Below, one piece after another: positions 16,301 through 43,883 of a stretch of DNA of 56,176 nucleotides. Both the position numbers and the translations under genes were made by a program. Each line of letters opens with the position of its first letter. Position 1 is the stretch's first letter. The DNA comes from Candidatus Nomurabacteria bacterium (GTDB lineage: Bacteria > Patescibacteriota > Minisyncoccia > Phycocordibacterales > UBA9973): contig DAIEQH010000001.1 of the NCBI GenBank assembly GCA_027347985.1, positions 1 through 56,176 on the forward strand, in the 5' to 3' direction. The notes under the pieces were generated by a model that made no database searches, was not told the DNA's origin, and saw only the letters and a program-made list of their open reading frames with translations.

Positions 16301-16395
16301 TAGGCACTAGGCTTTAGGCACTAGGCGCTAGCTTTTTAAAAAGTAAATAAAAAAATAATTAGCTAGTTGCCTAAAGCCTAACGCCTAGAGCCTAG
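16301..16395. repeat. Inverted arrays of TAGGCNN heptamers (site 1)
   Basis: The left arm is taggcac-taggctt-taggcac-taggcgc-tagc. The right arm is ttgccta-aagccta-acgccta-gagccta-g. A 28-nt A/T spacer separates them. The right arm overlaps the last codons and stop of map. Confidence 0.85.
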
Positions 16396-17155
16396 TTAGT
16401 ATTTCTGGCTCACCGTCGGTAATTAAAATAGTATGTTCAAAATGTGCGCTTTTTTTGCCATCAGCAGTACGAAAAGTATATCCATCTTTATCCAAGACAA
16501 CATTTTTCGTCCCATTGTTGAGCATCGGTTCTATTGCTATGACCATACCTCTCACAAGCTTTGCCCCTGTGTTTGCTTTTCCGAAATTTGGTACGTAAGG
16601 GTCTTCATGAATAGCTTTTCCGACACCATGCCCAGAAAGAACTTCCACAATACCGTATCTGTGGGGTCGCACAAAATGCTCTATGGCAGAGCCGATATCC
16701 CCAATCCTATTTCCTCCCATAGCAGCGTTGATACCCACATCTAGGGCCTGTTCTGTCGTTCTAATGAGCTTTGCCGAGGCAGCACTTACTTCTCCGACGG
16801 GTACAGTGAGGGCCATGTCGGTAAAAAGGCCATTATGTTTGAGTCCTAAATCAATGGAAACAATATCCCCTTCTTTCAAAATTCTGTCGGCACTCGGTAT
16901 TCCATGAACCACTTCATTATTTACAGAAACACAAAGAGAAGCTGGATAAGCAAAATCTGCACCTTCTGGTTTGTAATTTAAAAAAGCTGGTTCGTCATCC
17001 ATATCTTTTATCAATTTAAAAGCATAACTATCTAAATCTTTTGTGGAAATGCCGGGCTTCACTATTTCTTTCACTTTGTACAAAACAGTAGCGAGCCTTT
17101 TCCCGCCTTCTCGTAATATTTCTATTTCTTTTGGTGTTTTAATTATTATTGCCAT
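16385..17155 (-). CDS. map: Type I methionine aminopeptidase
   Basis: VVHGIP, DIVSIDLG, GHGVG and the FEHT metal ligands. Confidence 0.93.
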   Translation of the reverse strand: MAIIIKTPKEIEILREGGKRLATVLYKVKEIVKPGISTKDLDSYAFKLIKDMDDEPAFLNYKPEGADFAYPASLCVSVNNEVVHGIPSADRILKEGDIVSIDLGLKHNGLFTDMALTVPVGEVSAASAKLIRTTEQALDVGINAAMGGNRIGDIGSAIEHFVRPHRYGIVEVLSGHGVGKAIHEDPYVPNFGKANTGAKLVRGMVIAIEPMLNNGTKNVVLDKDGYTFRTADGKKSAHFEHTILITDGEPEILTRL

Positions 17156-17232: not shown

Positions 17233-18936
17233 TTAGTAGACTTCCTGATTATAGCATCTCTCACAATAAATAATCTCCGGTCTATCTGGGGAATAAGAAG
17301 TCTCAAACTCATTAGCACATCCTTCCTTCATACAATGTCTATGCCAGAGTTTAAGAGGATTTCTTTGTTTAAGTCTATTATAGTGTCTACAGTTAGGACA
17401 TAAGTGTGGAATGGGTAGATTCATTCTTTTATAGAAGGATAGTTCATCTGGTATGATTTTGAAGGCTTCAGTACATTGTTCATTACATTTACCTTTATGT
17501 TCACATTCTATGACTTTATTGATGATAGAATCATCTACTTCTTTGATGTTATTAGGAATATCTTCATTTTTGATATCTATTTGATAGTTTCTTTCTTCTT
17601 TCTCTTTCCAACTATATCCTTCCTTTAGGGCTTCTTCCTTAGTTAAGGGGAAGTATTCTTGTGCTATGGTTTCATTGTAGGAAAAGGGACTTAATTCAGA
17701 TGGAAAGAACTCTCCATACTTATATATTCTTCCTTTTTTATCCACATAGGGCATATCGTTCATGTGCTCTATGATTTTGGGAACCAAAGCTTCGTATTCT
17801 TCTTTTGTATATTGTTTGTTTAGGATGCAGTATTGCTTGGAGCGGAGACCGATGCAGGCGAAGAGGTCGTGGGACCCCGAGCAAAAATCGGAATAAGTAA
17901 GTTCATTTGAATCTCCACATGTGTTAGAAAACTTCGTTTGATTCGTCTTCCAAAAACCGAGGTATTCATAACAAAGTTCCATAAATTCACAATAGTTTGC
18001 ATCATATACATCTTTCCCATCTATCATTCTAATACAATATTTTTGATCATCACATCTTTTCACATCAAAACATTCATGTACATTTTTTGACTGAATAATA
18101 TTATTTCCAGAAACATTTTTACATTGTAATTCTACAGCAAATTTATGTGGAATGGTTGCTTTAAGTTTCAAAAATTCCTTTTTTATTTTTTCAAGACCTT
18201 CTTTTGTATCTAGTAATAATTTATCTTTTTTATCTAAATATTCTTCTCTTGTATAAGTTTTATTAAAAATATTATATTTCTGTCCACGAAGCCCTACACA
18301 ACCTATACAATCTTGGCAGTTTTTACAATCAAAACAATAGACAAGATCAAGCGAATTTGAACATTCTTGAGAAAAAATAGAATGTGAAAGTTTTTCACAA
18401 TCAATACATTCATAACAATATTCAGATTCCCGAGCAAGATAAGTGTCTACACAATATTTTGATTCATATGGTGAACCATATAAACAATTTTCTACATCAA
18501 TAGAACCGAAGCACAGATAACATGCTTTACCGTCTGCAAAATAATTACAATAATCACAATTTTTTGCATTTGATATAATCAGTGCTGGTCTTGGTGTTTT
18601 ATCTAAAAGTTTTTTAAATTGGGAGAAAAAAGTTTTTTCAAAATCATAATTTATTCTGAAATCTATAGGATTCCATTTATCTCCCCACCAACAATCATGA
18701 CAATAAACTGGGAAAGATTTATCTTTTGAATACATTGAGATAATTTGTTTCTTGCATAATTCACATACACGATGGTATAGGGTCCTTTCATTTCTCGCTG
18801 AAAAACGTCTTTGCAATCTGCATTCCGGACAAAAAGTGGGCGGAGGAACTTTTATCTTTTCATAAAAAGAAAAGTCGTCTGTCTCTATTGTGAAGTCTTT
18901 CTTGCAATTCTGACAAGATTTTATTTCTTTTTGCAT
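17233..18936 (-). CDS. Cys-rich zinc-ribbon-capped protein, paralog 1
   Basis: 567 aa with 42 Cys counted. The N-terminus has CQNCKKDFTIE..FYEKIKVPPPTFCPECR plus CELC-x17-CHDC. There are two copies of the (CxxC)n..LRxKxY(C)IxNKxYTxEEY unit. The C-terminus has LCPNCR plus C-x4-C-x17-CERC. No signal peptide. Confidence 0.7.
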   Translation of the reverse strand: MQKEIKSCQNCKKDFTIETDDFSFYEKIKVPPPTFCPECRLQRRFSARNERTLYHRVCELCKKQIISMYSKDKSFPVYCHDCWWGDKWNPIDFRINYDFEKTFFSQFKKLLDKTPRPALIISNAKNCDYCNYFADGKACYLCFGSIDVENCLYGSPYESKYCVDTYLARESEYCYECIDCEKLSHSIFSQECSNSLDLVYCFDCKNCQDCIGCVGLRGQKYNIFNKTYTREEYLDKKDKLLLDTKEGLEKIKKEFLKLKATIPHKFAVELQCKNVSGNNIIQSKNVHECFDVKRCDDQKYCIRMIDGKDVYDANYCEFMELCYEYLGFWKTNQTKFSNTCGDSNELTYSDFCSGSHDLFACIGLRSKQYCILNKQYTKEEYEALVPKIIEHMNDMPYVDKKGRIYKYGEFFPSELSPFSYNETIAQEYFPLTKEEALKEGYSWKEKEERNYQIDIKNEDIPNNIKEVDDSIINKVIECEHKGKCNEQCTEAFKIIPDELSFYKRMNLPIPHLCPNCRHYNRLKQRNPLKLWHRHCMKEGCANEFETSYSPDRPEIIYCERCYNQEVY

Positions 18937-18960: not shown

Positions 18961-18995
18961 ACTAGAGCCTAGTGCCTAAAGCCTAATGCCTAGTC
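18961..18995. repeat. NNGCCTA heptamer array (site 2, single arm)
   Basis: agagcct-agtgcct-aaagcct-aatgcct-ag, abutting and overlapping the dnaJ stop codon. Confidence 0.8.
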
Positions 18996-19882
18996 TATAT
19001 CCCCTCTTTTTTTAGTTCTTCTAGGAGTTCGCGGGCTTTTTTGGAAAGTTTGTTGGGTACTTTTATTTTTACTTTTATATACAAATCTCCGGCTTTACCA
19101 TTTTTTATCGCTTCACCACCTCCCGTCATTCTAATCATTTCTCCATCGTGAATATTTACTGGCACATTTACAGGAATCTCTACTTGTTTACGCAAAACTC
19201 CTTTGCCTTTACAGACATCACATTTTTCTTTTGGTACTTCCCCAGAACCTAAACATTCTTCACAAATTTTGGTACTTGAAATATTTCCTAGAATCGTTCT
19301 TCTCACTTCGCGAATATGCCCTTGACCATTACAATATTTACAAGTTTCCATTTTAGTGCCAGGTTTTGCACCAGAACCATGACAAGTGTTACAACTAGAA
19401 GTTTTAGTAATTGAAATTGTTCTTTCCGTCCCTAAAATTGCTTCCGAAAAAGAAATTTGTATTTCTGTAGAAATGTCTCGTCCGCGTCTTTGTTCACGTC
19501 TGCCTCCACCCATTCCTCCAGTAAAAAAATCACTGAAGATATCGTTTAGATTTCCAAAGTCAAAATCTCCACCATTGCCTCCTTGAAAACCACTAAAATC
19601 CCATTGTCCGCCTCTGGAGGAAAAACCTCCAAAACCGCCTTGAGAAGCTCCGTAGCCACCAGCCCCCATATTTTCAAAATTAGAGCCGTATTGATCGTAT
19701 TTTGCACGTTTAGTGTCATCGGAAAGGACCTGATAAGCCTCGTTTATCTCTTTAAATTTGGCCTCATTACCCTCCTTTTTGTCGGGATGGTACTTCTGGG
19801 CCAATTTGTAAAAAGCCTTCTTAATTTCATCTTTAGAAGCGCCTTTTTCAACACCTAATGTTTTATAATAGTCTTTTTGCAT
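18995..19882 (-). CDS. dnaJ: Chaperone DnaJ, short form
   Basis: J domain [12 protein letters not shown], a G/F-rich linker, and four CxxCxGxG zinc-finger repeats. Only about 70 aa follow the zinc finger (295 aa total). Confidence 0.9.
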
Positions 19883-19978: not shown

Positions 19979-21469
19979 TTATATCATAGGTTCTGCTTCC
20001 TGAGAAGCCACCTTTTTTGTTTCTGTTTCAGAAGTTTTTTCTTCTCCTTCACTTTTATTTTTCTTCCCTTTTCCTTCAATTATTGCTTTCTCTTCTGCAC
20101 TTCGGATAATCGTTGCCTCTTCTTCTTCAATAAGTTTTTGTGCGTCACCTTTGGAGATTGAATATTTCCTGCGAGATGCATCTAAAATTTCTTGACGATA
20201 TGAAGGATGAGTCGGAGGTAAAACTCTCAAAGATTCTGCAGAAAATGGATCGTAAGATTCTCCGTCAATAGTCATTTTGATATAAAATTCTGCCACAGCC
20301 AAGTTAATCATATCTTTCACACCGAACAGAGGCTCGAATTCTGGTTTTAATTTGACGGCATCTTCTCCACCGACTCTGAAACAAATGAGACTTCCTGTGT
20401 TTCCGAGCACTGCGTGTTGCACTTGTGGAATAAGCTGTCCGATGTACTGGTGCGCTATTGTCAGATTAAGAGCATATTTTCTAGCTTCTGACAAAATGTT
20501 TTCAAATGTTTGAGTGACAATGTTGTGGAACTCGTCTATGTACAAATAAAAGTCTCGACGTTCTGCTTCTGGAATACTTGCACGCTCCATTCCAGCTTGT
20601 TTTATTTTCGTCAAGAACATTGAACCGAAGAAACTTGAATTTTCTTCTCCAATGCGTCCTTTGGAAAGATTAATGAAAATGATTTTCCCTTCATTCATTA
20701 AGTCGCTGATATCTATTTTGTTTTGTTTCTGTCCGAAAATATTTCGGAGCAATGGGTCAGAGAGAAATTGTCCGAGTTTGTTGACTAGCGGAATGATAGC
20801 GTCCGTATCAAACTTCTCGGACCAATCCGCGAATTCAATAGCGAAGAATCTTTTAACCATGTCGTCAGTAATATACTCCACCACTTTCTGTCTGTAATTT
20901 CTGTCCGTCAACATTGAAATCATTCCGCGCATTGTGGCATGAGGATAATCAAGAAGTGCAAGGCAAGTGAAACGGAAAACGTGCTCTAAACGAGGAGTCC
21001 AGTTTGCTCCGAATTGTTTCTGCAAGACTTCGATTAAACCTTGAGTCAATTGAAACTTGAACATAGGATCGACATTCGCAAGCGGATTGAAGGAAGCTGG
21101 AAATTCAACATCTCCCGGGTCTATGACACAAATATCTTCTATGCGCTCTTTCGGAATATAATCAAGCATCGCGTCTATGACATCTCCGTGTGGGTCTATC
21201 AGACAAAGCCCGTGATTGTAAGTGACATCCTGACGGATAAGGAGCTCCAAGAGCTTCGTTTTACCAACGCCAGATTTTCCTACTATATATAGGTGTCTTC
21301 TACGGTCTATGCGTTTAATACCAAAGATAAATTTCTTCTCTTCTAGAGAAGCCACATAATTTGTGCGCCCAATAAAAGAAACCTCCTCAGGTTTAACTTT
21401 TCCAAATACTGGTAATTCTGGTGGAGGTGGTCCATATTTGATTATTTGCACTCGGTTCTGTCTTAACAT
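19979..21469 (-). CDS. TraD/VirD4-like coupling-protein-type NTPase, soluble (ATPase 2)
   Basis: 496 aa. Walker A GKSGVGKT, LIDPHGD, Walker B FYLYIDEFHN and EARKYALNLTIAHQY. The C-terminal tail is acidic/Lys-rich. No TM segment. Confidence 0.75.
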   Translation of the reverse strand: MLRQNRVQIIKYGPPPPELPVFGKVKPEEVSFIGRTNYVASLEEKKFIFGIKRIDRRRHLYIVGKSGVGKTKLLELLIRQDVTYNHGLCLIDPHGDVIDAMLDYIPKERIEDICVIDPGDVEFPASFNPLANVDPMFKFQLTQGLIEVLQKQFGANWTPRLEHVFRFTCLALLDYPHATMRGMISMLTDRNYRQKVVEYITDDMVKRFFAIEFADWSEKFDTDAIIPLVNKLGQFLSDPLLRNIFGQKQNKIDISDLMNEGKIIFINLSKGRIGEENSSFFGSMFLTKIKQAGMERASIPEAERRDFYLYIDEFHNIVTQTFENILSEARKYALNLTIAHQYIGQLIPQVQHAVLGNTGSLICFRVGGEDAVKLKPEFEPLFGVKDMINLAVAEFYIKMTIDGESYDPFSAESLRVLPPTHPSYRQEILDASRRKYSISKGDAQKLIEEEEATIIRSAEEKAIIEGKGKKNKSEGEEKTSETETKKVASQEAEPMI

Positions 21470-21505
21470 ATATATTTATTTTACTACAAAATTGGCTTAA
21501 ATTCC

Positions 21506-21546
21506 ACACCTCACCCCAGCCCCTCTCCTTAGTAAAGGCGAGGGGT
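21506..21546. repeat. GC-rich palindromic mini-element, intergenic copy
   Basis: cacctcaccccagcccctctccttagtaaaggcgagggg. It belongs to the same family as 30903-30935 and, in reverse orientation, 56061-56096. Confidence 0.7.
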
Positions 21547-21548
21547 TT

Positions 21549-23234
21549 TTAGTATACTTCTTTATTATAACAACTCTTGCAATATATAATTTCTGGGCGT
21601 TCCGGTGCATAGCTTGTCTCAAATTCATTCTGGCATCCTTCTTTCATGCAATGTCTATGCCAGAGCTTAAATGGATTTTCTAATTGCAAACGTTCCTTTC
21701 TTCGACAATAAAAACATTTTCTAGGTATTGGAATTAAGTATTTTTTATAAAAAAGAAATTCATTTTTTGTAATTTTATAATTTCGATTACAAAGATCACA
21801 GGCTAGTACTTCATCTAATATAGATTCTTTAACTTCTAAAATTGAATCTTCTATCTGTTCTTTTTTAAGAGTTTCTTTATTTATTGTTTTTTGTACATCA
21901 TCCCACCATTTGAAACCATTATTAATTGCTTCTTCTTTGGTTAATGGAAAATATTCCATAGCTATAGTCTCATTGTATCCAAAATGTGATAATTTAGCAG
22001 GAAAAAATTCTCCATATTCTCCTGTTTTTTTCATATGTTCAATCAGTTTGTTTCTTAATTTAAAATACTCGTTTTTTGAATATTGTTTGTTTAAAATACA
22101 ATATTCTCCATGTTTGATAGCAGAACAACCAAATAGGTTTTTTGATGAATGGCAATTTTCAACATAGCTTGATTCTTGGCTTTTTAACGAATAAATAGAA
22201 AATAAAACTTGAAAATCGTGATCTGATGTGAGACTTTCATAAGACTCTGAACTTTTTCCACCAGGAGTAAGATCATAACTATCTTTTATTTCATTACTTC
22301 GCCAAATAAATCGTGAATCTTCTATTGCGCGGGACCAAAAAACATCTTTGGAATTTTTACTGTTTATTAAACCCTGTCCAGAGCATTTTACGCAATTTAA
22401 TATGTCGGCAAATCTTCTAATCTGCTTTTTCATAAATTCTGTAAACTCTTTTTTTGCTTTTTCTGATCCTGAATATGTTTCAAGATGATAATCTGCTAAT
22501 ATTTTTTCATATTTCTCTTTTGTATATTGCTTGTTCAAAATACAATATTTCTTTTGGCGTAAGTTTGCGCACATGAAACAATTAGAACAACCCTTACAAT
22601 CATAACAGAAAGAACAATCGTTGAGGGCAGAAGAATAGTAGCAATTTCGGCAATTGTAACAATGTTCCAAAAAAATTCCTTCATAAATAATTTGTGAGTA
22701 ATGAAAAATACCAAGACTGTCTACGACATCACTTGTTTCTGGACCTCCTATACTATAGCCATACATACAATCTTTGATAAACCAAGACATGGAGACCATG
22801 TAACAATTTTTAGCAAAAGTTACATTTTCTGTATATTCACAGTTTAGACTACCGATACCATCATCATTAAATAATGAGGGTAAGGGTACTTTGTCTTGCA
22901 ATTTTCTAAATTGTTCAAAAAAAGGTCGAGAAAAATCTAAATCCTGAGCATAACTTTTTGGATCCCATTTATCACTCCACCAACATTTATTACAATATAC
23001 TGTAAGCGACTTATCTTTATGATAAAGAGAAATTATAAGTTTTCCACACAAATCACAATTTCTGTTATAAAAAGTTATATCGTTACGCCAAGCCATTCTC
23101 CTTTGCTGTCTACATTCCGGACAAAAAGTCGGAGGGGGAACTTTTATCTTTTCATAAAATCCAAAATCATCTGACTCGATAGTGAAGTCTTTCTTACAGT
23201 TCTGGCAATTTTTTGTTTCACTTTTATATTCCAT
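21549..23234 (-). CDS. Cys-rich zinc-ribbon-capped protein, paralog 2
   Basis: 561 aa. CQNCKKDFTIE..FYEKIKVPPPTFCPECR, CDLC-x17-CNKC, two YCILNKQY(T/S)K units, and C-terminal CMKEGC-x17-CKSC. Confidence 0.7.
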   Translation of the reverse strand: MEYKSETKNCQNCKKDFTIESDDFGFYEKIKVPPPTFCPECRQQRRMAWRNDITFYNRNCDLCGKLIISLYHKDKSLTVYCNKCWWSDKWDPKSYAQDLDFSRPFFEQFRKLQDKVPLPSLFNDDGIGSLNCEYTENVTFAKNCYMVSMSWFIKDCMYGYSIGGPETSDVVDSLGIFHYSQIIYEGIFLEHCYNCRNCYYSSALNDCSFCYDCKGCSNCFMCANLRQKKYCILNKQYTKEKYEKILADYHLETYSGSEKAKKEFTEFMKKQIRRFADILNCVKCSGQGLINSKNSKDVFWSRAIEDSRFIWRSNEIKDSYDLTPGGKSSESYESLTSDHDFQVLFSIYSLKSQESSYVENCHSSKNLFGCSAIKHGEYCILNKQYSKNEYFKLRNKLIEHMKKTGEYGEFFPAKLSHFGYNETIAMEYFPLTKEEAINNGFKWWDDVQKTINKETLKKEQIEDSILEVKESILDEVLACDLCNRNYKITKNEFLFYKKYLIPIPRKCFYCRRKERLQLENPFKLWHRHCMKEGCQNEFETSYAPERPEIIYCKSCYNKEVY

Positions 23235-23277
23235 AATTCTTCATACCTACATACTCCAGTTTGTAAGGATGTTATTT

Positions 23278-25029
23278 TTAGTATACCTCTTTGTTGTAAC
23301 ATTTCTCGCAATAAACTATTTCCGGTCTGTCGGGAGCATAGGCTGTCTCAAATTCATTCATACATTTTCCTGAATGCTCGTGATTCTTTTTTTCGCACAT
23401 ACAAGTCCTGTGCCAAAGCTTCATCGGATTTCTTTTTCTCAATCTTTCTTCGTGTCGACAGATAAAACAAAGCCGTGGTAAAGGCACTCCTAGTTGACGA
23501 TATAAACTCAATTCATCTTTTGTTATTTTATATGCACCCAAGCAACGATCTATACATTTCCCTTCATGTTCGCAACCAATGATTTCATTGGTAATTGATT
23601 CTGGAATATCTTCTAAGCTATCCATTATATCTTTAGCTTTCATTGTCGTGACATATTCACTTATTTTTCTGTCTCTCCATTTATATCCCCTTTTTATTGC
23701 TTCTTCTTTAGTTAAAGGAAAATAATCTTGGGCCACTGTTTCATTGTAAGTAAAAGTTGAAAATTCCGCAGGGAAAAACTCTCCATACTTATAGACAATT
23801 CCCCTCTTGTCAACATAAGGAACATCGTCCATCTGCTTTTTTATTTTAGGAATGAGAGCTTCATATTCTTCTTTAGTGTACTGTTTGTTTAAAATACAAT
23901 ATTTTTTACTTCGAAGTCCGATGCAACCAAATAAATTGTCACAACCATGGCAATTGAAAGCATATTCAATATTATTAGAACTATAAACCACACTAGTGAA
24001 AAGATTACGGAAATTTCCTATGCCAGTGTTAAATGCTTCATATATCATTTCGCCTTCCCCTATCCCCGGTCCTGAGTCATAAACATCTTTTGCATAAAGA
24101 GCAACCCAGTGTATATATTTCGAATCTTCAATTCGTGTTCCTGATGCATCAAAACAAAACTTACAATTTTTTACCCCATCTAGATTATCTCCTGTAGAAT
24201 TCACCATTTTAGAATAATTAGCAAAACGATGTATTGATTTAATATAAAGTTCATTAAATTTCTTTTTTAACTCCAAAATGGTTTTATAACTTTTTAAATT
24301 TATTTTTGCTAAGCGACTTAAATATTCATCTCTACTTAGTTGCTCATTCCACATACAATATGATTTATTGCGAAGATTTGTACAACCAAAACAATTTGTA
24401 CAACCATGACAATCGTACAAAAAACATGAATCTACACAACTTTTACAATTAAATGAATATCTAGTTCGATAACAATCAGTGCAAAACAAACAATCATAAC
24501 AAAGTTCACAACGATAACAAACATAAAGATCTCCGCAATCTGTCGTATACGAAATTCTATTAGAATAAAAAGTTCTATCTATTCTCCAAGAACCAGAACA
24601 CATATAACTGTCTTTACTTCCTTCAGCTACATTACAATAATCACTATTGGTGGCTTTTATATTTGAAAGACATTGAATAGGGCTACTATTTCTCAATTCC
24701 TCCCACTGTTTAAAAAATGGTTTAGAAAAATCATATTCTTTACCGAGGGAAATAGGGTCCCATTCATCTCCCCACCAATATTTAGAATCAACTACTTTTA
24801 ATTTTTCATTAGGATGAATAAAAGAAATCAACATTTCATCATGCCCTGGAGCATCACATTTTCTTCTAAAGAAAGACATTTCGTTTCTCCAACACAAACG
24901 GCGAACGGTCCGACATTCGGGACAGAAAGTCGGCGGAGGAACTTTTATTTTTTCATAGAATAAAAAATCTTCTATTTCTAGAGTGAAGTCTTTCTTGCAG
25001 TTCTGACAATTTTTGACTTCTTTTTTCAT
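23278..25029 (-). CDS. Cys-rich zinc-ribbon-capped protein, paralog 3
   Basis: 583 aa. Same N-terminal ribbon, but the second (x17) ribbon has lost its cysteines. Two LRxKxYC..N.Q units. C-terminal C-x17-CEKC. Confidence 0.7.
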   Translation of the reverse strand: MKKEVKNCQNCKKDFTLEIEDFLFYEKIKVPPPTFCPECRTVRRLCWRNEMSFFRRKCDAPGHDEMLISFIHPNEKLKVVDSKYWWGDEWDPISLGKEYDFSKPFFKQWEELRNSSPIQCLSNIKATNSDYCNVAEGSKDSYMCSGSWRIDRTFYSNRISYTTDCGDLYVCYRCELCYDCLFCTDCYRTRYSFNCKSCVDSCFLYDCHGCTNCFGCTNLRNKSYCMWNEQLSRDEYLSRLAKINLKSYKTILELKKKFNELYIKSIHRFANYSKMVNSTGDNLDGVKNCKFCFDASGTRIEDSKYIHWVALYAKDVYDSGPGIGEGEMIYEAFNTGIGNFRNLFTSVVYSSNNIEYAFNCHGCDNLFGCIGLRSKKYCILNKQYTKEEYEALIPKIKKQMDDVPYVDKRGIVYKYGEFFPAEFSTFTYNETVAQDYFPLTKEEAIKRGYKWRDRKISEYVTTMKAKDIMDSLEDIPESITNEIIGCEHEGKCIDRCLGAYKITKDELSLYRQLGVPLPRLCFICRHEERLRKRNPMKLWHRTCMCEKKNHEHSGKCMNEFETAYAPDRPEIVYCEKCYNKEVY

Positions 25030-25045
25030 AACCTTCTGCTAGTTA

Positions 25046-27130
25046 TTATTCCAAAATTTTTCTTAAAACATCTTCTGGAACTTCTTTAGAATTTATTTTA
25101 GGAGGTGTAGGTATAGCAATTTCCTCTTTCTTTTCTTCCACTTTTGGAACTTCTTCTGTTTTTATATTAGTAGATTGAATAAAATTCTTTAACTTATCCA
25201 TGTCTTCCTTACTTGCAGATCTATCTTTTAAGGTATTATTGGAAACCGGTTTATTATTCTTTAATTCATCTAGTGAAATGGAAGGTTCTGGTATTTTTTC
25301 AACTTTTTTTATTTCTGGTTCTATTTTTTTCTCTTCTTTTTTATTGTCTAAAATTTTATTTTCATTGAGTGTCTTATTTAAAATTTCTCTCAATGCTAGA
25401 TTTTCTTTTGGTTTTTCTTTAACAAAAACTTTCTTAATTGCTGAAAACATTTTTGGACGTGCTGAAGCTGTCGTAGATATGGTAGAAGTTTCTTTAGTTG
25501 GAATTTTTTTCTGATATTCTTGTGTTAAAGGTTTATCTACTCTTTCTGGATATCTTTCATCTTCCCCGTTTTTATCTTTTGATAAGAATTCAATACCCAA
25601 ATCAGACAATGGTTTATAAAATTTACTTTCATCTTGTTTAATCTGTTTAATAGAACCGGCAAGTGGCTTTAATTCCCCAGATTTTATTTTAGCAATACAA
25701 TCTTTACAATATACTGCCCTGCCTGCTTCTGGTTTGAAAGGCACCATTGTTTCTTTCTTACAGATAGAACATACAGCTGGAAACTTCTCTACTCCGCCTA
25801 TCGCATTGTCGTCACCGACAGACATACCACTCCAATCATTTATTTCTCTTTCTACCACTTCTCTTGGACGACAATAGAGCTCGCGGGAAGTTTTAATAAC
25901 TTCGTCTTCAACTTCTTTATTTCCAGATTTAACCATAGGTGGTAAGGTTTTTGCAGAAAATGGGCGTGAGGTTATGCCATCTATCATCAGCTTTAAATAA
26001 ATTTTGAAGTTTGGTAAATTCACAATATCTTGAGGCACAAATTCTGGTTCAAATTCTTTTTCTAAAAATTCTGCATCATCTGCACCCACTCGGAAAACTA
26101 TCATCGTACCAACGTTACCGAAAATGGAATCTCTGACGCTAGAATTTTTCTCCGATATGAGCTGAGCGGTATATTGATGAGCCACCGTCAGATTCAATCT
26201 ATATTTTCTAGCCTCAGACAAAATACTAGCGAAAGCATCCGTCACGAAATTTTGGAATTCGTCTACGTAAAGATAGAAATCTTTTCTTTCATCTTCTGGG
26301 ATACGTACACGTTCCATGGCAGCAAGCTGAATCTTAGTGATGATCATTCCTCCTAGAAGCGAAGAGTTATCCTCACCGATGCGTCCTTTAGAAACATTCA
26401 CCAAAAAAATTTTTCCTTCATTCATTATGTCAAAAATATTTATTGTGCTTTTTGATTGACCGACAATATTTCTGATGATGGATGTGGAAAGAAATTGCCC
26501 GACTTTATTTTGGATAGGAGCAATAGCTTCATTTCTAAATTTATCCTGCCAAGCTTCATACTCGTGAACCCAGAAAGCTTTTATAACAGGGTCTTTTAAA
26601 TTTGAAATTATTTTCTGACGGTAATCTTTGTCCACCAACATTCGGGGTATGCCTAAAAGCGTCGAACCCGGAGTATCAAGCAATGCCAAAATCGCATTAT
26701 TTAAAATATATTCCATACGAGCACTCCAAGCATTCGCCCAAATTTTTGTGAAGATGCCCATCAATCCTGAAGCGACTAGATGCTTGTATTTCGGGTCAAT
26801 AAGTTCCAAGACGTTAAAACCGATATGGTGTTCCGTGTCGGCTGGATTGAAATAAATAACATCTTTCATGCGATGTGGCGGAATAGCCGATAAAATAGCT
26901 TCAACATTTTCTCCATGCGGGTCAACCATACAAACACCGTCACCATTTTCAATGTTCTGGATAATCATGTTGAACATTAGGGCAGATTTACCGGTACCAG
27001 ACTTTCCGAGAATATAAACATGCTGGCGTCTATCTTTACGTTTAATGCCAAAAAGCACATTTTTGTCTCTATAAGTAGTGTAACCAATATAGGTGAGTTC
27101 TTTATTTTTAGGTATTTCCTTTAATTCCAT
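25046..27130 (-). CDS. TraD/VirD4-like coupling-protein-type NTPase with a C-terminal CxxC-x17-CxxC zinc ribbon and a Lys/Glu-rich tail (ATPase 3)
   Basis: 694 aa. GKSGTGKS, VDPHGE, FYLYVDEFQN and EARKYRLNLTVAHQY. The ribbon CSIC-KKETMVPFKPEAGRAVY-CKDC is at nt 25697-25771. Its stop is 16 nt from the start of paralog 3. Confidence 0.75.
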   Translation of the reverse strand: MELKEIPKNKELTYIGYTTYRDKNVLFGIKRKDRRQHVYILGKSGTGKSALMFNMIIQNIENGDGVCMVDPHGENVEAILSAIPPHRMKDVIYFNPADTEHHIGFNVLELIDPKYKHLVASGLMGIFTKIWANAWSARMEYILNNAILALLDTPGSTLLGIPRMLVDKDYRQKIISNLKDPVIKAFWVHEYEAWQDKFRNEAIAPIQNKVGQFLSTSIIRNIVGQSKSTINIFDIMNEGKIFLVNVSKGRIGEDNSSLLGGMIITKIQLAAMERVRIPEDERKDFYLYVDEFQNFVTDAFASILSEARKYRLNLTVAHQYTAQLISEKNSSVRDSIFGNVGTMIVFRVGADDAEFLEKEFEPEFVPQDIVNLPNFKIYLKLMIDGITSRPFSAKTLPPMVKSGNKEVEDEVIKTSRELYCRPREVVEREINDWSGMSVGDDNAIGGVEKFPAVCSICKKETMVPFKPEAGRAVYCKDCIAKIKSGELKPLAGSIKQIKQDESKFYKPLSDLGIEFLSKDKNGEDERYPERVDKPLTQEYQKKIPTKETSTISTTASARPKMFSAIKKVFVKEKPKENLALREILNKTLNENKILDNKKEEKKIEPEIKKVEKIPEPSISLDELKNNKPVSNNTLKDRSASKEDMDKLKNFIQSTNIKTEEVPKVEEKKEEIAIPTPPKINSKEVPEDVLRKILE

Positions 27131-27179
27131 TCTGTAGTGAATTATACCCCAAAATTAAATTTTTATCAAAACAAAAAAA

Positions 27180-27836
27180 CTAATTTATTGGGCTAGAAAA
27201 ACACTCAATAGAAAAATACCTTTTATTTTTCAAACACTGAAGTATAACTCCATTATTTTTATTTTCCTTGATTAGTGAATCTAGGTCGTCTTTTCTATAA
27301 TAATCTTTTTGAAGATCATTTGAGTACTTAAGGATTTCTTGTTTGATCTCTATTTCTTTATCTTGTATATCTTCATTTTTTGCATAAGAAAATAGAAAAA
27401 TTCCAGATATTATAAATAAAACTTCTAATAAAATAAAAAATGTTCTCGAGAGTCCTAATTTTTTATTAATTATAAAATCAAATATTGAAACTAAAAAACT
27501 CATAGAACTAAGTAAAATTAAAGTCAGCCCAGTAATAGCATGCCAATCTCTATATGACCTAAAAACTTGAAAATCGATGGAAACAAAAGTAAATAAAGCA
27601 ACAAATATTCCTAATGTTTCAATCACTGATAATTTACTACTTTCTATCTTTTTATCATATTCTAATATTTTTTCATCTATTTTGTCTATTCTACGATTAA
27701 AACCTTCTTCAAAGGACGCTATGTATTTTGTATATCCTTCAATGGTTAAATATTGATGCTGAACAGAAGTATCTTTGGGTACTTCAATTATCTTTGTTTC
27801 TGTCTCCTGAAAATTTTCTTTATTTTCTGATTCCAT
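27180..27836 (-). CDS. Three-TM membrane protein with soluble N- and C-terminal coiled regions (unknown)
   Basis: 218 aa. Hydrophobic segments are LSVIETLGIFVALFTFVSIDF, ITGLTLILLSSMSFLVSIFDFII and FFILLEVLFIISGIFLFSY. Confidence 0.5.
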   Translation of the reverse strand: MESENKENFQETETKIIEVPKDTSVQHQYLTIEGYTKYIASFEEGFNRRIDKIDEKILEYDKKIESSKLSVIETLGIFVALFTFVSIDFQVFRSYRDWHAITGLTLILLSSMSFLVSIFDFIINKKLGLSRTFFILLEVLFIISGIFLFSYAKNEDIQDKEIEIKQEILKYSNDLQKDYYRKDDLDSLIKENKNNGVILQCLKNKRYFSIECFSSPIN

Positions 27837-27841
27837 ATATT

Positions 27842-28474
27842 TTACAAAAGAATTTGTTCTGACTTAGAAATAGCATCTCTAATAAAATTAGTTAAAACCT
27901 TATCTTTAAAAGAATTTTTTGATAAATCTTCTAAAAGAGTATTAATATCTCTCATTATAATAACTCCTTTTTTTTGACTTCCATTTTTTTCATCTTTTAT
28001 AAACCCACTTTCATACATCTGAGAATTATTAACGTTAACTCCAGATAAGTTAATAACCTCATTAAAACGAATTACTATTTGTGTTGGATTGATAGTTGAA
28101 ATCACTTTTTTATCAAAAAGATTTTTTAATTCTTCAATGGTAATTTCTTTAAACGTAGTAGTAACAACACCTATTCTCCCAATTTCAACAGAGAGGCCTG
28201 ACAAAACATTAAGTATATTAGGGAAAAATTTTTCAAAGAAACTTGAATCAGTAGAGAAAAAATCAATTCTATTTATTGCAAGATTTATATCTACACTACT
28301 TGATTTAATAATTAACCTTGGAATTTCAGGCGGCATATTAGCAGGAATTCCTAATTGAGTTACTACACCATCTCCAAATTCTTTTTTTATTAAAAGTGAA
28401 GCTTTTTCAAGTTGATCAGAATAATTTGATTTAAAGAAGAGACTTATTTGCAATTTAATAAATTGTTTTGCCAT
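27842..28474 (-). CDS. Hypothetical protein (210 aa, soluble, no family recognised)
   Basis: ORF only. It is tightly packed, with a 1-nt gap to the upstream gene and a 5-nt gap to the downstream gene. Confidence 0.45.
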   Translation of the reverse strand: MAKQFIKLQISLFFKSNYSDQLEKASLLIKKEFGDGVVTQLGIPANMPPEIPRLIIKSSSVDINLAINRIDFFSTDSSFFEKFFPNILNVLSGLSVEIGRIGVVTTTFKEITIEELKNLFDKKVISTINPTQIVIRFNEVINLSGVNVNNSQMYESGFIKDEKNGSQKKGVIIMRDINTLLEDLSKNSFKDKVLTNFIRDAISKSEQILL

Positions 28475-28475
28475 G

Positions 28476-28757
28476 TTATTTATTATCTCCTGGTTCTTTT
28501 AAATCGGCCATTTGAATGGGACTTTGTATTTGTGGTGGAGTCATATCAATTTCTCCAAATTGTTTCTCGTAGTTTTGAACTTGTCCATTAATCCACATTG
28601 CTATACTTTTCATAACTTGTGGCGTAGTCGCAAAAGAATCAAGACTATTTCCAGAGGTTATGGCAAAAGTAAAAAATTCTTTTCCGTGAGCCCCAAAGGC
28701 ACCATCACAAAACTTTTTTGGTAATTGATTTATGTCTATTTTTGTTGGGTCAATCAT
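28476..28757 (-). CDS. DUF3467-like small protein
   Basis: The C-terminal part TTPQVMKSIAMWINGQVQNYEKQFGEI resembles the DUF3467 signature as I recall it (..P.hAK.l...L...i..YE..FG.I). The start was set at MIDPTK (28757) rather than the track start at 28796. Confidence 0.5.
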   Translation of the reverse strand: MIDPTKIDINQLPKKFCDGAFGAHGKEFFTFAITSGNSLDSFATTPQVMKSIAMWINGQVQNYEKQFGEIDMTPPQIQSPIQMADLKEPGDNK

Positions 28758-28804
28758 ATTTTTATTTTTTCTTATTACTAATAATAAAACTAACAATAAT
28801 TATA

Positions 28805-30712
28805 CTACACTTTAGGAGCTTCCCCTTCTCCTTTTTCGTTTTCCTTGTATTCTGCATCATGAACTTCGGGATTTTGTTCTTCCGGGGCTTGAGCTGGAGG
28901 AGTTTCAGCGCCAGCTTTATTCATTGCTTCACCGATTTTGGACATCTCATTTGAAAGTTCTTCTGTTGCTTTTTTAATAGCTTCAGAATCTGTTCCATCT
29001 TTTACACTTCTTAAAGCAGTTATTTTTGCATTTACATTATCTTTTACATCTGCAGGGATTTTTGCTTCATTATCTTTCAACGCCTTTTCGGCAGTGTAAA
29101 TAATCATCTCTGCAGTATTTTTTATGTCAACAATTTCTCTTTTCTTTTTATCTTCTTCAGCGTGAAGCTCTGCATCTTGTTGCATTTTTTTAATGTCTTC
29201 TTCCTTAAGTCCAGAACTTGCTTCAATTTTAATTGATTGAGCCTTACCTGAAGCTTTATCTTTTGCAGTCACATTCAATATTCCGTTTACATCAATATCA
29301 AATGTCACTTCTACTTGTGGCATACCACGTGGTGCTGGTGGAATTCCATCTAGAATAAAGCGCCCTAGAGATTTATTGTCAGTAGCCATTGGGCGTTCTC
29401 CTTGAACGATATGAATTTCTACAGAAGTCTGATTATCAGCAGCGGTTGAAAATACTTGAGATTTTGAAGCTGGAATAGTTGTGTTTCTATCAATTAATTT
29501 TGTAGCAACTCCCCCTAATGTTTCAATACCAAGAGAAAGTGGAATAACGTCAAGCAATAGTACATCTCGTACATCTCCTGCAAGCACACCTGCTTGTACG
29601 GCTGCACCGAGAGCTACGACTTCATCCGGATTTATAGACATATTAGGAGTTTTACCAAAAAGATTTTTTACAGCTTCTACTATTGCTGGCATTCTTGTTT
29701 GTCCTCCAACCATTATAATTTCATTTATTTCAGCCATCTTAAATGGTGAAGCATCAAGAGCTCTTTTCGTTATTTCAATTGATCTATCTATATATTCTTT
29801 CGCAATAGACTCAAGAGTGGCTCGAGACATTTTCATAAGCAAATGTTTTGGACCACTGGCGTCAGATGTAATAAATGGAATATTTATTTCTGCTTCTAGT
29901 GTTGTAGAAAGTTCATGCTTAGCTTTTTCAGCTGCTTCTTTTAATCTTTGATGTGCTAATGGGTCCTTCCTCACATCTACACCTGATTCTTTTTTATATT
30001 CTTCAGCAATCCAAGAAATTATTTTTCTATCAATATCTCCTCCACCCATGTGAGAGTCACCATCTGTGGACTTAACTTCTATCACATCATCTCCAATTTC
30101 AAGTACAGAAACATCAAAAGTTCCTCCACCGAAATCATAAACAACTATCTTTTCATTTTTCTTTTTATTAAAACCATATGCAAGGGCCGCAGCTGTCGGT
30201 TCATTTATGATTCTTTTTACATCAAGCCCTGCTATCTGTCCTGCATCCTTTGTTGCCTTTCTTTGAGCATCATTAAAATATGCAGGCACGGTGATGACAG
30301 CTTCGGTAATTTTTTCTCCAAGCTTTGCCTCCACATCCGTTTTTATTTTCTGTAAAATCATTGCAGAAATTTCTTCTGGACGATAAAATTTATCTGACAT
30401 TTTTACTTTTACTCCGCCATTGTCTCCTTGTTCAATTTTAAATGGAGCTGTTGCTTTATCTTTCTGTACTTCTGGATCATCAAATCTGTGACCCATATAT
30501 CTTTTTATTTCAGAAATTGTATTCTCAGGATTTGTGACAGCTTGTCTCTTTGCAAGAAGTCCGACGATACGGTCACCATTCTTTGCTGTCGCAACGACAG
30601 AAGGAGTGGTGCGATTACCCTCCACATTTTCAATAATTTTTGGCACGCCTCCTTCAATGAAAGCAACTGCCGAATTTGTTGTACCTAAATCTATACCTAT
30701 TATTTTTGACAT
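28805..30712 (-). CDS. dnaK: Chaperone DnaK (Hsp70)
   Basis: [19 protein letters not shown], and full-length Hsp70 architecture. Confidence 0.97.
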
Positions 30713-33178: not shown

Positions 33179-34888
33179 TTAATAGATTTCTTTCTTATAA
33201 CACTCACTACAAAGCACTTTTTTAGGACCACCTTTTTCCTCTCGCAAATAAGTGGTGTTAATCTCTTTCTTACATAGAAAACATTCTCTTTTGTTTAAAA
33301 TCATAGGATTACGAAGCTTTAATCTTCTATTGTGTCGTTCTTCCGGATGAATCGAGGGTAACGGTAAATCAAATCTTCTATAAAAATTTAATTCTTGTTC
33401 TATAATTTTAAAAGGTTTACCGGTAATTTCACATTCGATAACTTCATTTAAAATAGAATCATTTACTTCAGAGATTGTCTTCGGTAAATCTTTACCTTTT
33501 ATTGTAACTTTATAAGAGCCAGGAATATATTCACGCCATAGGTATCCCTTCTCTTCTGCTGTTTTTTTATCTAAAGGAAAATAATCTTGAGCAACAGTTT
33601 CATTGTAAGCAAAAGGAGAAAGCTCGGAAGGAAAAAATTCACCATATTTATATACTCTACCTTTTTTGTCTACATATGGCATATCTAGCATATGCTGTTT
33701 TATTTTAGGAACCAGTTCTTCATATTTTTCTTTCGTATATTGTTTATTTAGAATACAGTATTTTTTCCCATTCATTTCTGTACAACCAAAACAATTCTGA
33801 CAATTATTCATCATAAAACTATAATAAATATCTTGAGAATACCAAATAATTGCACCCAAAAAACATTTACTATTTTCAACCCCAATACTTATACCTTCAT
33901 ATGTTAATTCTGAATTACCCCCAGAACCAGGACCGACATCATAAGCGTCACTACACCCCTGACTACCCCAATTTGCATATTTTACATTTTGAAATTCACC
34001 GTCTAAATCAAAAACATTATAACAATTGCGTGAGTTATATACATGGTCGCCGACAACATTTACAGTATTTACGAGTTTCACATCTCTATGAAATGCTTCT
34101 TCCCAAAGTTTTTTAAATTTGTTTCTAGCCTCTTCTATACCATCACGCGTGTTAAAAGCAAACTCATTTTTCTTCTTTAAATATTCCTCTTTTGTATATT
34201 GAATATTTTCAATGCAGTAAGTTTTATTTCTAAGATTAGTACATAAAATACAGTTAGAACAATTTCGGCAATCATATAAAAAATAAGAATCTAGGCAAGA
34301 TTCACTTTCTAGTGAAAAAAATAATCTACTGGAGTCTCGGCAATATACATTTTCATATCCGAACTCCAAATCATAACAAATATAAGAATCCTGAATAAAT
34401 TTACATCTAGATGCTCTATTGCAATATACGGAATCTTCACAATTCCAAGCTGCAGTAACTAAATAGCAGTTTTTCATTTCAACTGTTACATTACAAAATC
34501 TAGAATTTACCGACTTTGAATCAGATAAGGCAAGATGTGGCACTTCTTCCATAAGTTCAGCAAATTGTTTTAAAAATGGTTTAGAAAAATCATATTCTCT
34601 TCCATAAGAAGATGAATCCCATTTATCACTCCACCACATTTCTTTATCATAAGTTTTTACTCTAGCATCAGGATGAAAAACTGAGATAATTAAATCTTTT
34701 TTTCTCTCTTCTGCGTCTTGTCTACGAAACAACGAATGTTCATTTCGCCAAACGAGACGACGAGTTAGCCGACACTCTGGACACCAAGTAGGTGGAGGAA
34801 CTTTTATCTTTTCATAAAAATTAAAATCTTCCAACTCTATGGTAAAGTCTTTTTTGCAGTTCTGGCATTGTTTGATTTCTGATTTCAT
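33179..34888 (-). CDS. Cys-rich zinc-ribbon-capped protein, paralog 4
   Basis: 569 aa. CQNCKKDFTIE..FYEKIKVPPPTWCPECR. The x17 ribbon is degenerate. Two YCI.N.QYTKE.Y units. C-terminal CFLC-x20-CSEC. Confidence 0.7.
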   Translation of the reverse strand: MKSEIKQCQNCKKDFTIELEDFNFYEKIKVPPPTWCPECRLTRRLVWRNEHSLFRRQDAEERKKDLIISVFHPDARVKTYDKEMWWSDKWDSSSYGREYDFSKPFLKQFAELMEEVPHLALSDSKSVNSRFCNVTVEMKNCYLVTAAWNCEDSVYCNRASRCKFIQDSYICYDLEFGYENVYCRDSSRLFFSLESESCLDSYFLYDCRNCSNCILCTNLRNKTYCIENIQYTKEEYLKKKNEFAFNTRDGIEEARNKFKKLWEEAFHRDVKLVNTVNVVGDHVYNSRNCYNVFDLDGEFQNVKYANWGSQGCSDAYDVGPGSGGNSELTYEGISIGVENSKCFLGAIIWYSQDIYYSFMMNNCQNCFGCTEMNGKKYCILNKQYTKEKYEELVPKIKQHMLDMPYVDKKGRVYKYGEFFPSELSPFAYNETVAQDYFPLDKKTAEEKGYLWREYIPGSYKVTIKGKDLPKTISEVNDSILNEVIECEITGKPFKIIEQELNFYRRFDLPLPSIHPEERHNRRLKLRNPMILNKRECFLCKKEINTTYLREEKGGPKKVLCSECYKKEIY

Positions 34889-43785: not shown

Positions 43786-43883
43786 CTCTCTCTCTTATTT
43801 AATTTAATTAATTAAATTGTTGGTTGTGCAAATTTTTACTTAGAATACTCTCTCTCTTTACATGTCAAGCTTTATGTGTTTGT

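Follow-up and report, generated by a model that had tools for sequence, protein, structure and literature searches.

Split coupling-protein-like ATPases and a membrane-anchored partner encoded by Patescibacteria

Introduction

The complete contig DAIEQH010000001.1 (56,176 nucleotides) from a Candidatus Nomurabacteria bacterium (GenBank assembly GCA_027347985.1; this whole stretch is called the window) encodes three paralogous soluble ATPases, ATPases 1, 2 and 3, of the family of type IV coupling proteins (T4CPs). A sequence-only reading of the window had described them as lacking transmembrane (TM) anchors, and taking them for anchorless orphans does not hold. The window also encodes NDOM, a membrane-anchored protein whose gene, in about 40 of 80 orthologous loci, precedes the ATPase 3 orthologue by no more than about 50 nt, and the ATPases are split coupling proteins rather than orphans. 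Moreover, the conservation and synteny of ATPase 3 point to a strongly constrained core function.

Patescibacteria constitute a large part of bacterial diversity and rely on their hosts for nucleotides, lipids and amino acids. A type IV secretion system (T4SS) is essential to epibiotic growth in Candidatus (Ca.) S. epibionticum, whose T4SS cluster holds neither a recognisable coupling protein nor a recognisable relaxase (Wang et al., 2023; PMC10633639), and the t4cp homologue of this species is non-essential (PMC12102498, citing PMC10633639). Quiñonero-Coronel et al. (2025) surveyed 3,035 Patescibacteria genomes and recorded 5,713 VirD4-type T4CP homologues, spread over 2,918 of the genomes and in only 148 cases near virB4; a virB4 homologue was present in 2,417 of the genomes, and relaxase homologues numbered only 109 (PMC12102498). 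The placement of VirB4 derives the patescibacterial T4SS from the monoderm class MPF-FATA (MPF, mating-pair formation), and according to the authors an exaptation of t4cp 'cannot be ruled out' (PMC12102498). Repurposing, as the sequence-only reading also suggested, is plausible and had thus been put forward in print before.

The window ATPases are very probably the same genes as the homologues catalogued in that survey, and their location away from secretion genes is an instance of the pattern it reported. In the texts of PMC12102498, PMC10633639, PMC7431656 and PMC13037476, no NDOM partner, split or fused architecture or set of three orthogroups was found, nor any zinc-finger tail, DnaK-level conservation, secDF/sigma-like synteny or association with cysteine-rich (Cys-rich) genes. 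Neither the NDOM partner nor the tail with its zinc finger nor the level of conservation appears to have been described before.

The comparisons presented here draw on GTDB species genomes that were scanned with the ATPase core, in which 598 loci were confirmed and the best 80 (L numbers) analysed. These 80 span Nomura-, Jorgensen-, Lipton-, Wolfe-, Doudna-, Staskawicz-, Giovannoni-, Morani-, Uhr-, Kerfeld- and Portnoybacteria. The close homologues of the ATPases are annotated as Candidatus Nomurabacteria, Paceibacterota or Parcubacteria.

Sequence, family and predicted fold of the ATPases

The three open reading frames (ORFs; Table 1) lie exactly where the sequence-only reading had placed them, and the motifs it had listed are invariant or nearly so in an alignment of ATPases 1-3, the cores of which are 33-47% identical to each other over about 430 residues. 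Walker A reads GQTGTGKT in ATPase 1, GKSGVGKT in ATPase 2 and GKSGTGKS in ATPase 3, and the other shared motifs are (I/V)DPHG, DFYLY(I/V)DEF and SEARKY.L.L..AHQY. The leader motif IG.T.Y...FGIKR.DRR.H.YI.GKSG was also confirmed in the alignment. As had been claimed, the chains themselves contain no TM helix: in a Kyte-Doolittle scan (19-residue window, threshold 1.6) their maxima were 1.54, 0.96 and 1.12.

The earlier assignment to the coupling-protein family is borne out by Pfam profiles, by a sequence match to TrwB, which is the only match of the ATPases among PDB sequences, and by fold matches to TrwB, DotL and Cagβ. Each ATPase scores above the gathering threshold for TrwB_AAD_bind, T4SS-DNA_transf or TraG-D_C. 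All three profiles exceed their cut-offs in ATPase 3 (41.7, 35.2 and 28.7 bits for TrwB_AAD_bind, T4SS-DNA_transf and TraG-D_C, respectively), and ATPase 2 matches T4SS-DNA_transf (27.5 bits), TrwB_AAD_bind (26.1) and DUF87 (27.2), the DUF87 matches of the ATPases being marginal overall at 22-37 bits. Against the NCBIfam T4CP equivalogs, the ATPases stay far below every cut-off, with sub-threshold matches to TraD and CD1115-type VirD4 only.

An AlphaFold2 model of ATPase 2 (pLDDT 80.5, pTM 0.81) places an all-alpha insertion (aa 135-260) between Walker A (aa 64-71) and Walker B (aa 306-313), and in this predicted structure the insertion sits where TrwB has its all-alpha domain. A Foldseek search of the PDB with the model returned TrwB first (E 1e-9, TMt 0.58-0.62), then DotL, from the coupling complex of Legionella, and Cagβ; HerA came after the T4CPs, and VirB4 (4ag6) stood at rank 40. 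As regards FtsK/SpoIIIE, the ATPases have no match to the Pfam family FtsK_SpoIIIE, and the EssC/EccC structures matched the ATPase 2 model at E 0.1 or worse. In hhalign comparisons with plasmid pSK41 proteins, 314 columns were aligned with the T4CP TrsK versus 109 with the VirB4 homologue TrsE. The ATPases are therefore not C-terminal ATPase domains of the VirB4 type and are nearer to T4CPs in both sequence and fold.

The C-terminal tails differ among the paralogues. ATPase 3 carries a treble-clef zinc finger that matches PF23477 (E 5.9e-12) and TIGR04272 (49.2 bits versus a cut-off of 36), and its CxxC-x17-CxxC pattern is kept in the tails of 58 of the 80 ATPase 3 orthologues. Domains of this type bind zinc in small proteins of Methanosarcina (PMC12704099). 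Past the finger, the ATPase 3 tail continues for about 210 residues rich in Lys, Glu and Pro. ATPase 2 and its orthologues have no such finger. The tail of ATPase 2 is acidic and Lys-rich, and its last six residues, EAEPMI, are nearly invariant in orthologues; this peptide could serve for docking.

NDOM, a membrane-anchored partner

The NDOM protein is homologous to the N-terminal part of ATPase 1 (aa ~144-485; BLASTP E 6e-9). Hidden Markov models (HMMs) divide ATPase 1 accordingly, NDOM scoring 248.9 bits over aa 144-485 and the ATPase 756 bits over aa 486-914. The N-terminus of NDOM holds a TM-like segment (aa 1-34), modelled as one long helix over residues 2-43. In about 50 of the 80 loci, drawn from many lineages, the ATPase 3 orthologue is preceded by a stand-alone NDOM gene in the same orientation, and in about 40 loci the two genes are either within about 50 nt of each other or overlap by a few bases. 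An N-terminal TM segment was detected at a strict threshold in 40 of the 50 NDOMs. Soluble ATPases with an adjacent, dedicated membrane protein are thus what these loci encode, and coupling proteins that lack a TM domain and have a separate anchor are a recognised class (PMC7431656, PMC13037476).

Further indications of a common chain come from two sources. L044 also encodes a single-chain TM-NDOM-ATPase, and the start of ATPase 2 (...KYGPPPPELPV) echoes the C-terminus of NDOM (...KEASPPTNLPV), which is what a gene fission point would leave. Within the window itself, the genes for NDOM and ATPase 3 are separated (Table 1).

The AlphaFold2 model of NDOM (pLDDT 81.4, pTM 0.81) gave, as its top 12 fold matches in the PDB, only TrwK/VirB4 of the R388 T4SS, at probabilities of 0.85-1.0 and with TM-scores of only 0.29-0.37. 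Since these TM-scores are low, the predicted fold is best called VirB4-N-terminal-like, homology with VirB4 being unproven. A comparison with the local Pfam library gave nothing consistent, and the NDOM profile found no match among PDB sequences at E values up to 10. Homologues of NDOM carry the precomputed Pfam accession PF26449; no paper was found under this accession or a possible DUF name. The family comprises about 2,725 clusters at 50% identity among 1.84 billion representative proteins, and the best 150 clusters are almost all stand-alone proteins of about 400-500 aa, some being shorter and apparently truncated. Two known plasmid proteins were considered as counterparts and rejected by hhalign with pSK41 proteins: TrsD, VirB4-N-terminal-like and reported to be abundant in Patescibacteria, shows no similarity to NDOM, and TrsJ, an anchor of the pIP501 TraI type, reached a probability of 0.2%.

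The sequence-only reading had stated that no other conjugation or T4SS gene accompanies the ATPases. This stands for the genes that were sought: when all window ORFs were searched by phmmer with VirB4, relaxase-like and PrgI proteins of plasmids, only the ATPases came up, and the same queries returned nothing within ±10 kb of the 80 orthologous loci, single-sequence queries being of limited sensitivity in both cases. What the statement had overlooked is the partner gene, NDOM.

Orthogroups, synteny and conservation

The ATPases fall into three orthogroups. At every one of the 80 loci the central ATPase is an ATPase 3 orthologue, with 59-91% identity to the window core; ATPase 2 orthologues occur at 24 of the 80 loci, in a Paceibacteria-like subset only; and ATPase 1 belongs to a separate group of NDOM-fused paralogues. 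For the latter, a separate set of 80 metagenome loci with 6-kb flanks was examined, in which the orthologues are 69-78% identical across the N-terminal 485 aa and most loci share the order map-ATPase 1-ndk-membrane protein-β-CASP-SLOG.

At other loci, the recurring gene order is secD-secF-sigma70-region-4/HARE-HTH-NDOM-ATPase, often followed by mnmA and alaS. The window order is sigma-like, NDOM, mltG, exonuclease, mnmA, mgtC and alaS; as no ATPase follows NDOM here, the ATPase 3 gene has left its ancestral slot beside NDOM in the window lineage. As a side finding, an orthologue of the sigma-70 region 4/HARE-HTH protein (Sigma70_r4 E 6e-14, HARE-HTH E 1.2e-10) lies directly upstream of NDOM in 41 of the 80 loci.

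Conservation was compared within genomes, as the identity of the ATPase 3 core to its window orthologue set against that of other proteins. The median difference was +3 percentage points relative to DnaK (n=14), +12 relative to both GrpE (n=12) and AlaRS (n=13), +21 relative to MnmA (n=19) and +23 relative to DnaJ (n=12); the loci had been picked by similarity to ATPase 3, which biases the comparison somewhat, yet the gaps remain large. Thus the core of ATPase 3 is about as conserved as DnaK and evolves more slowly than AlaRS and MnmA. NDOM is just 23-32% identical across the comparison genomes. DnaK-level conservation together with fixed housekeeping synteny rules out that ATPase 3 is the cargo of a mobile element.

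Relatives on conjugative plasmids

A tblastn search of 72,556 plasmids with the ATPase 3 core found 596 records, all below 60% identity, and the best-covered matches include plasmids of Sulfitobacter, Priestia, Embleya, Streptomyces, Bradyrhizobium, haloarchaea, Sulfolobus and Bacillus subtilis. The Embleya linear plasmid NZ_CP108778 presents the order PrgI, XF1762, ATP-binding protein (a VirB4-like ATPase), T4CP, replication-relaxation protein and NlpC/P60. Its T4CP, of 812 aa, has a TM segment (aa 34-56), an NDOM-like region (aa 76-395) and an ATPase (aa 412-784). The NDOM-like region resembles NDOM only weakly, hhalign giving 310 collinear columns at E 1.8e-4 and a probability of 49%, and the two have in common the motifs DP..LL, GE..Q...P and EELA.L.H.P...PP..(I/L)P.

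In two further plasmids, a protein annotated as DUF87 matches the NDOM HMM and continues into the ATPase core: one of 883 aa on Shouchella clausii NZ_CP012476 (E 3e-23) and one of 913 aa on B. subtilis CP120602 (E 1e-19). Both are without a TM segment, as is ATPase 1. The Shouchella gene is followed by a replication-relaxation (relaxase-like) gene, with conjugal-transfer and VirB4-like genes on the same plasmid, and conjugal-transfer and TcpD/TcpE genes lie near the B. subtilis gene. The ATPase 3 core is 25-32% identical to the B. subtilis and Embleya proteins. To our knowledge, the NDOM-type DUF87/T4CP proteins of Gram-positive plasmids are experimentally uncharacterised. The idea that the protein of the 65-kb B. 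subtilis plasmid is the T4CP of pLS20 was dropped, the latter being about 786 aa long with two TM helices (PMC8557374). Overall, NDOM joined to an ATPase is the architecture of coupling-protein-like genes in monoderm conjugation clusters, which agrees with the MPF-FATA placement of the patescibacterial T4SS (PMC12102498).

The closest ATPase 3 match outside Patescibacteria (38.8% identity, E 6e-93) is on the alphaproteobacterial, non-mobilizable Sulfitobacter plasmid NZ_CP081110 (L081, positions 99994-101181). It is a stand-alone core of 395 aa, with neither NDOM nor TM segment, flanked by a recombinase and transposases, and looks like a horizontally moving orphan.

Cys-rich neighbours and other genes of the window

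The window is AT-rich (about 34% GC) and holds no compositional island, and almost all of its genes are on the minus strand. Its housekeeping genes are recG, ftsH, smpB, infC, rplT, ndk, map, dnaJ, dnaK, grpE, genes for ribosomal proteins, rpoA, alaS, mnmA, mltG and typA. Table 1 lists the features discussed.

Table 1. Coordinates of the ATPases, NDOM and other features of the window
Feature	Positions	Strand	Description
ATPase 1	13534-16281	-	915 aa; soluble N-extension aa 1-143, NDOM aa 144-485, T4CP-like core aa 486-914
ATPase 2	19979-21469	-	496 aa; paralogue without zinc finger, C-terminal EAEPMI
ATPase 2 tail	19979-20100	-	acidic/Lys-rich
ATPase 3	25046-27130	-	694 aa; core of T4CP type at aa 1-440, zinc finger at aa 448-482, then a long tail rich in Lys and Glu
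Zinc finger of ATPase 3 tail	25685-25789	-	CxxC-x17-CxxC treble-clef; PF23477, TIGR04272
ATPase 3 tail past zinc finger	25049-25684	-	about 210 aa
NDOM	52235-53530	-	431 aa; N-terminal TM helix (~aa 1-43) and VirB4-N-terminal-like alpha/beta domain (predicted)
Sigma-70 region 4 + HARE-HTH protein	53623-54651	-	immediately upstream of NDOM
Cys-rich paralog 1	17233-18936	-	567 aa, 42 Cys; between dnaJ and map
Cys-rich paralog 2	21549-23234	-	561 aa with 34 Cys; ATPase 2 follows after 79 nt
Cys-rich paralog 3	23278-25029	-	583 aa with 40 Cys; follows ATPase 3 after 16 nt
Three more Cys-rich paralogs, tandem	33179-34888, 35002-36780, 36822-38492	-	between ABC transporter gene and grpE
map	16385-17155		between ATPase 1 and Cys-rich paralog 1
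dnaJ	18995-19882		chaperone gene
dnaK	28805-30712		chaperone gene
grpE	38461-39042		chaperone gene
Three small genes	27180-28796		one product multi-TM
Promoter match	27141-27169	-	sigma-70-like, 11 nt upstream of ATPase 3 start
Transposase	3885-4580	-	IS200-like Y1 (Y1_Tnp)
Transposase	43824-44576	+	IS200-like Y1 (Y1_Tnp)
Alanyl-tRNA synthetase	47141-48883	-	580 aa

Six Cys-rich paralogs, each of 556-592 aa with 29-42 Cys, are encoded in the window, the tandem trio being 33-49% identical to paralog 1. They share a layout of an N-terminal CxxC...CPxC zinc ribbon, a doubled 'C..C..C..C...YCI.N.QYT.EEY' module and C-terminal zinc fingers. The family counts at least 8,000 homologues in public data; none of them is named and hardly any has a Pfam domain, and the window members themselves have no Pfam domain above threshold. 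The ends of the proteins show weak, sub-threshold similarity to treble-clef and LIM-like zinc fingers, at both ends for the treble-clef matches of paralog 3, and a vague likeness to the finger in the ATPase 3 tail.

The spacings that had been noted, 16 nt between ATPase 3 and paralog 3 (25030-25045) and 79 nt between paralog 2 and ATPase 2 (21470-21548), are exact, and map does lie between ATPase 1 and paralog 1. The pairing inferred from them survives in part: it is real beside ATPases 2 and 3 in several Paceibacteria lineages but facultative, and that with ATPase 1 is not conserved. Several Cys-rich copies lie upstream of ATPase 3 in L027, and L031, L034, L037 and L039 hold NDOM, Cys-rich and ATPase genes in a single cluster. 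ATPases 3 and 2 adjoin each other, with no Cys-rich gene between them, in the sister genomes L003, L005, L008, L011 and L012. No Cys-rich gene was seen near the non-Paceibacteria loci among the 80, and about 7 of the 80 ATPase 1 loci have one in their 6-kb flanks. The link of the Cys-rich genes to ATPases 2 and 3 is therefore real but lineage-specific, and that to ATPase 1 incidental.

The three chaperone genes are spread over 20 kb (18995-39042), and between them lie Cys-rich genes, two ATPases, an ABC transporter, a PaaX-like regulator and the three small genes. Upstream of ATPase 3, a sigma-70-like promoter match (TTGATA-17-TATAAT, 11/12) was seen, such matches occurring at chance frequency in the region; a promoter scan of 12.5-31.5 kb found promoter-like sites at chance frequency throughout, and a terminator scan of the same interval found none on the minus strand within the gaps between the ATPase and Cys-rich genes. 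The two transposase genes are paralogues about 39 kb apart. A typical bacterial alanyl-tRNA synthetase has about 870 aa, so the 580 aa of the window protein suggest that its C-terminal region has been lost; orthologues at the other loci have about 600 aa. Several metagenome-assembled genomes (L003, L009, L046, L058, L060 and others) are titled uncultured Candidatus Saccharibacteria, Gammaproteobacteria or Bdellovibrionales, and one protein among the Patescibacteria-type loci is labelled Burkholderiales. As the loci are syntenic and highly identical to Paceibacteria at the protein level, these titles and the label look like misclassifications.

Possible functions

The ATPase genes would be chromosomally fixed, vertically inherited descendants of a monoderm-type T4CP, the ancestral chain of which may have consisted of a TM anchor, NDOM and a VirD4/TrwB-like ATPase with its all-alpha insertion. 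In most Patescibacteria this protein would have been split into adjacent genes, TM-NDOM and then the ATPase. In the window lineage, the ATPase 3 gene would have moved to the dnaK/dnaJ neighbourhood, leaving NDOM in place, and a single duplication of ATPase 3 would have produced ATPase 2. ATPase 1 may be a more ancient paralogue that has kept its NDOM fused, with a soluble extension in place of the TM helix.

As to what such proteins do, we lean towards split coupling proteins that deliver a macromolecular substrate to a patescibacterial T4SS-like apparatus via docking on NDOM, a role that we hold to be probable, although not firmly so. The soluble ATPases would form ATP-driven rings, NDOM would dock these rings at the membrane, and DNA or protein would be handed to the chromosomal T4SS-like apparatus that most Patescibacteria encode at another site. 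Modules that bind substrates or adaptors may be the ATPase 3 tail with its zinc finger, the conserved peptide that ends ATPase 2 and the neighbouring Cys-rich zinc-ribbon proteins. The comparisons above establish homology, split and fused architecture, synteny and conservation, together with a predicted fold, and it is docking, ring formation, T4SS coupling and the substrate that are inferred.

Several observations weigh against this role. VirB4, relaxase and other T4SS genes were not found near any of the 80 loci (phmmer, ±10 kb), just 148 of the 5,713 published homologues are near virB4, and T4CP homologues are present in more genomes (2,918) than VirB4 (2,417) (PMC12102498). In Ca. S. epibionticum the T4SS is essential and the t4cp homologue is not (PMC12102498, citing PMC10633639). 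The rate at which the core of ATPase 3 evolves, as low as that of DnaK, would be unusual for a receptor of secretion substrates, and the fixed neighbours of the gene are the housekeeping genes secDF, the sigma-like factor, mnmA and alaS. Further, the TM-scores between NDOM and VirB4 are low, and the NDOM match in Embleya is weak (hhalign probability 49%).

Much of the same evidence can be turned in favour of the main rival, a housekeeping translocase that acts independently of any T4SS, which we regard as possible but doubtful. NDOM and the ATPase would then be a stand-alone, membrane-docked motor with the zinc finger as a putative nucleic-acid-binding module, and candidate roles are the uptake of host or environmental DNA for nucleotides or an FtsK-like handling of the chromosome at division. 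DnaK-level conservation, an ATPase 3 orthologue in all 80 sampled loci, the fixed synteny secDF-sigma-like-NDOM-ATPase-mnmA-alaS, the lack of any T4SS gene found nearby and the zinc-finger tail in 58 of the 80 orthologues would all fit, as would the wider distribution of T4CP homologues than of VirB4 and the dispensability of t4cp where the T4SS is essential (PMC12102498). However, the nearest non-patescibacterial relatives are coupling-protein-like genes in plasmid conjugation clusters, NDOM resembles a domain of a T4SS subunit, and the dispensability in S. epibionticum, if the gene is an orthologue, itself argues against an essential role.

A related and rather unlikely proposal, offered tentatively, is that NDOM and ATPase 3 constitute a Patescibacteria-wide core membrane motor, exapted from conjugation and working independently of it and possibly of a T4SS. 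Such a motor might, for example, pull host DNA or other macromolecules into auxotrophic episymbionts, with the zinc-finger tail binding cargo and the Cys-rich family of Paceibacteria serving as adaptors or cargo.

The remaining explanations are weak. It is improbable that the ATPases work with DnaK, DnaJ and GrpE to unfold, metallate or export Cys-rich zinc proteins. Such a machinery would explain why the genes are interleaved with the dnaK operon, in the order grpE, three Cys-rich genes, the ABC transporter and PaaX-like genes, dnaK, the three small genes, ATPase 3, two Cys-rich genes, ATPase 2, dnaJ and a Cys-rich gene, and clusters of Cys-rich and ATPase genes recur in L027, L031, L034, L037 and L039. 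Nevertheless, most Patescibacteria have the ATPase beside NDOM, secDF and mnmA rather than dnaK, sister genomes have no Cys-rich genes between ATPases 3 and 2, Cys-rich genes are seldom near ATPase 1, and a T4CP-type ATPase in a chaperone system is not known.

An integrated conjugative element, remnant or active, with its remainder elsewhere in the genome or decayed, is very improbable: homology to plasmid T4CP-like proteins and the two IS200-like transposase genes might suggest it, but it was rejected on the same housekeeping synteny across distant Patescibacteria lineages, DnaK-level conservation and even GC content, and integrase, relaxase and MPF genes were not found among the window ORFs. 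An equally remote proposal, that the ATPases belong to an anti-phage defence system as HerA/mad8-like proteins, draws on weak PADLOC matches to mad8 (E 3e-16 to 2e-11) and HerA and on HerA defence complexes among the fold matches of ATPase 2, and was rejected, as T4CP structures fit better than HerA, partner effector genes (Sir2, DUF4297, other mad genes) are absent and the genes are universal, syntenic and slow-evolving, unlike defence islands.

Significance

A T4SS-like machine is essential in the sole species of Patescibacteria tested, yet its cluster has been described without a recognisable coupling protein. The 'orphan' T4CP homologues found across the phylum can now be seen as a two-part machine, in which a membrane-anchored, VirB4-N-terminal-like protein is paired with a soluble motor. 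Moreover, the uncharacterised family NDOM/PF26449 is now tied to coupling-protein-like genes of Gram-positive plasmids. NDOM, the motor core with its DnaK-like conservation and the zinc-finger tail are concrete targets for genetics, co-folding and imaging. Should the system prove to act without a T4SS, it would clearly exemplify how a motor of conjugation can become a translocase with a housekeeping role.

Comparison with known systems

Among related ATPases, HerA is set apart by structures that rank below T4CPs for the ATPase 2 model and by the absence here of partner nuclease or effector genes. VirB4/TrwK provides the top fold matches of the NDOM model, at low TM-scores, and the division into NDOM and ATPase recalls that into TrsD and TrsE. 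The homologues catalogued in Patescibacteria (PMC12102498) agree with the window ATPases in being VirD4-type, in occurring at about two per genome and in being rarely near virB4, relaxases being rare as well.

The T4CPs TrwB, VirD4 and TraD share with the ATPases a P-loop core of the FtsK/HerA superfamily and, by the ATPase 2 model, an all-alpha domain inserted between the two Walker motifs. Unlike them, the ATPase chains have no TM domain, the TM helix residing in the separate NDOM protein, and an extra NDOM of about 350 aa, fused or separate, is placed between anchor and motor. Linked relaxase and MPF genes were not found here, and the genes are chromosomal and vertically inherited.

Closer parallels in organisation are the pairs TraJ and TraI of pIP501 and TrsK and TrsJ of pSK41, in which a soluble VirD4-like ATPase has an anchor thought to be encoded just upstream (PMC7431656, PMC13037476). 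Their membrane anchors are small, whereas NDOM has about 430 aa and is VirB4-N-terminal-like, and in the window it lies 25 kb from the nearest ATPase gene. Finally, the NDOM proteins of Gram-positive plasmids, although plasmid-borne, combine NDOM and a T4CP-like ATPase in one chain, just as ATPase 1 does on the chromosome.

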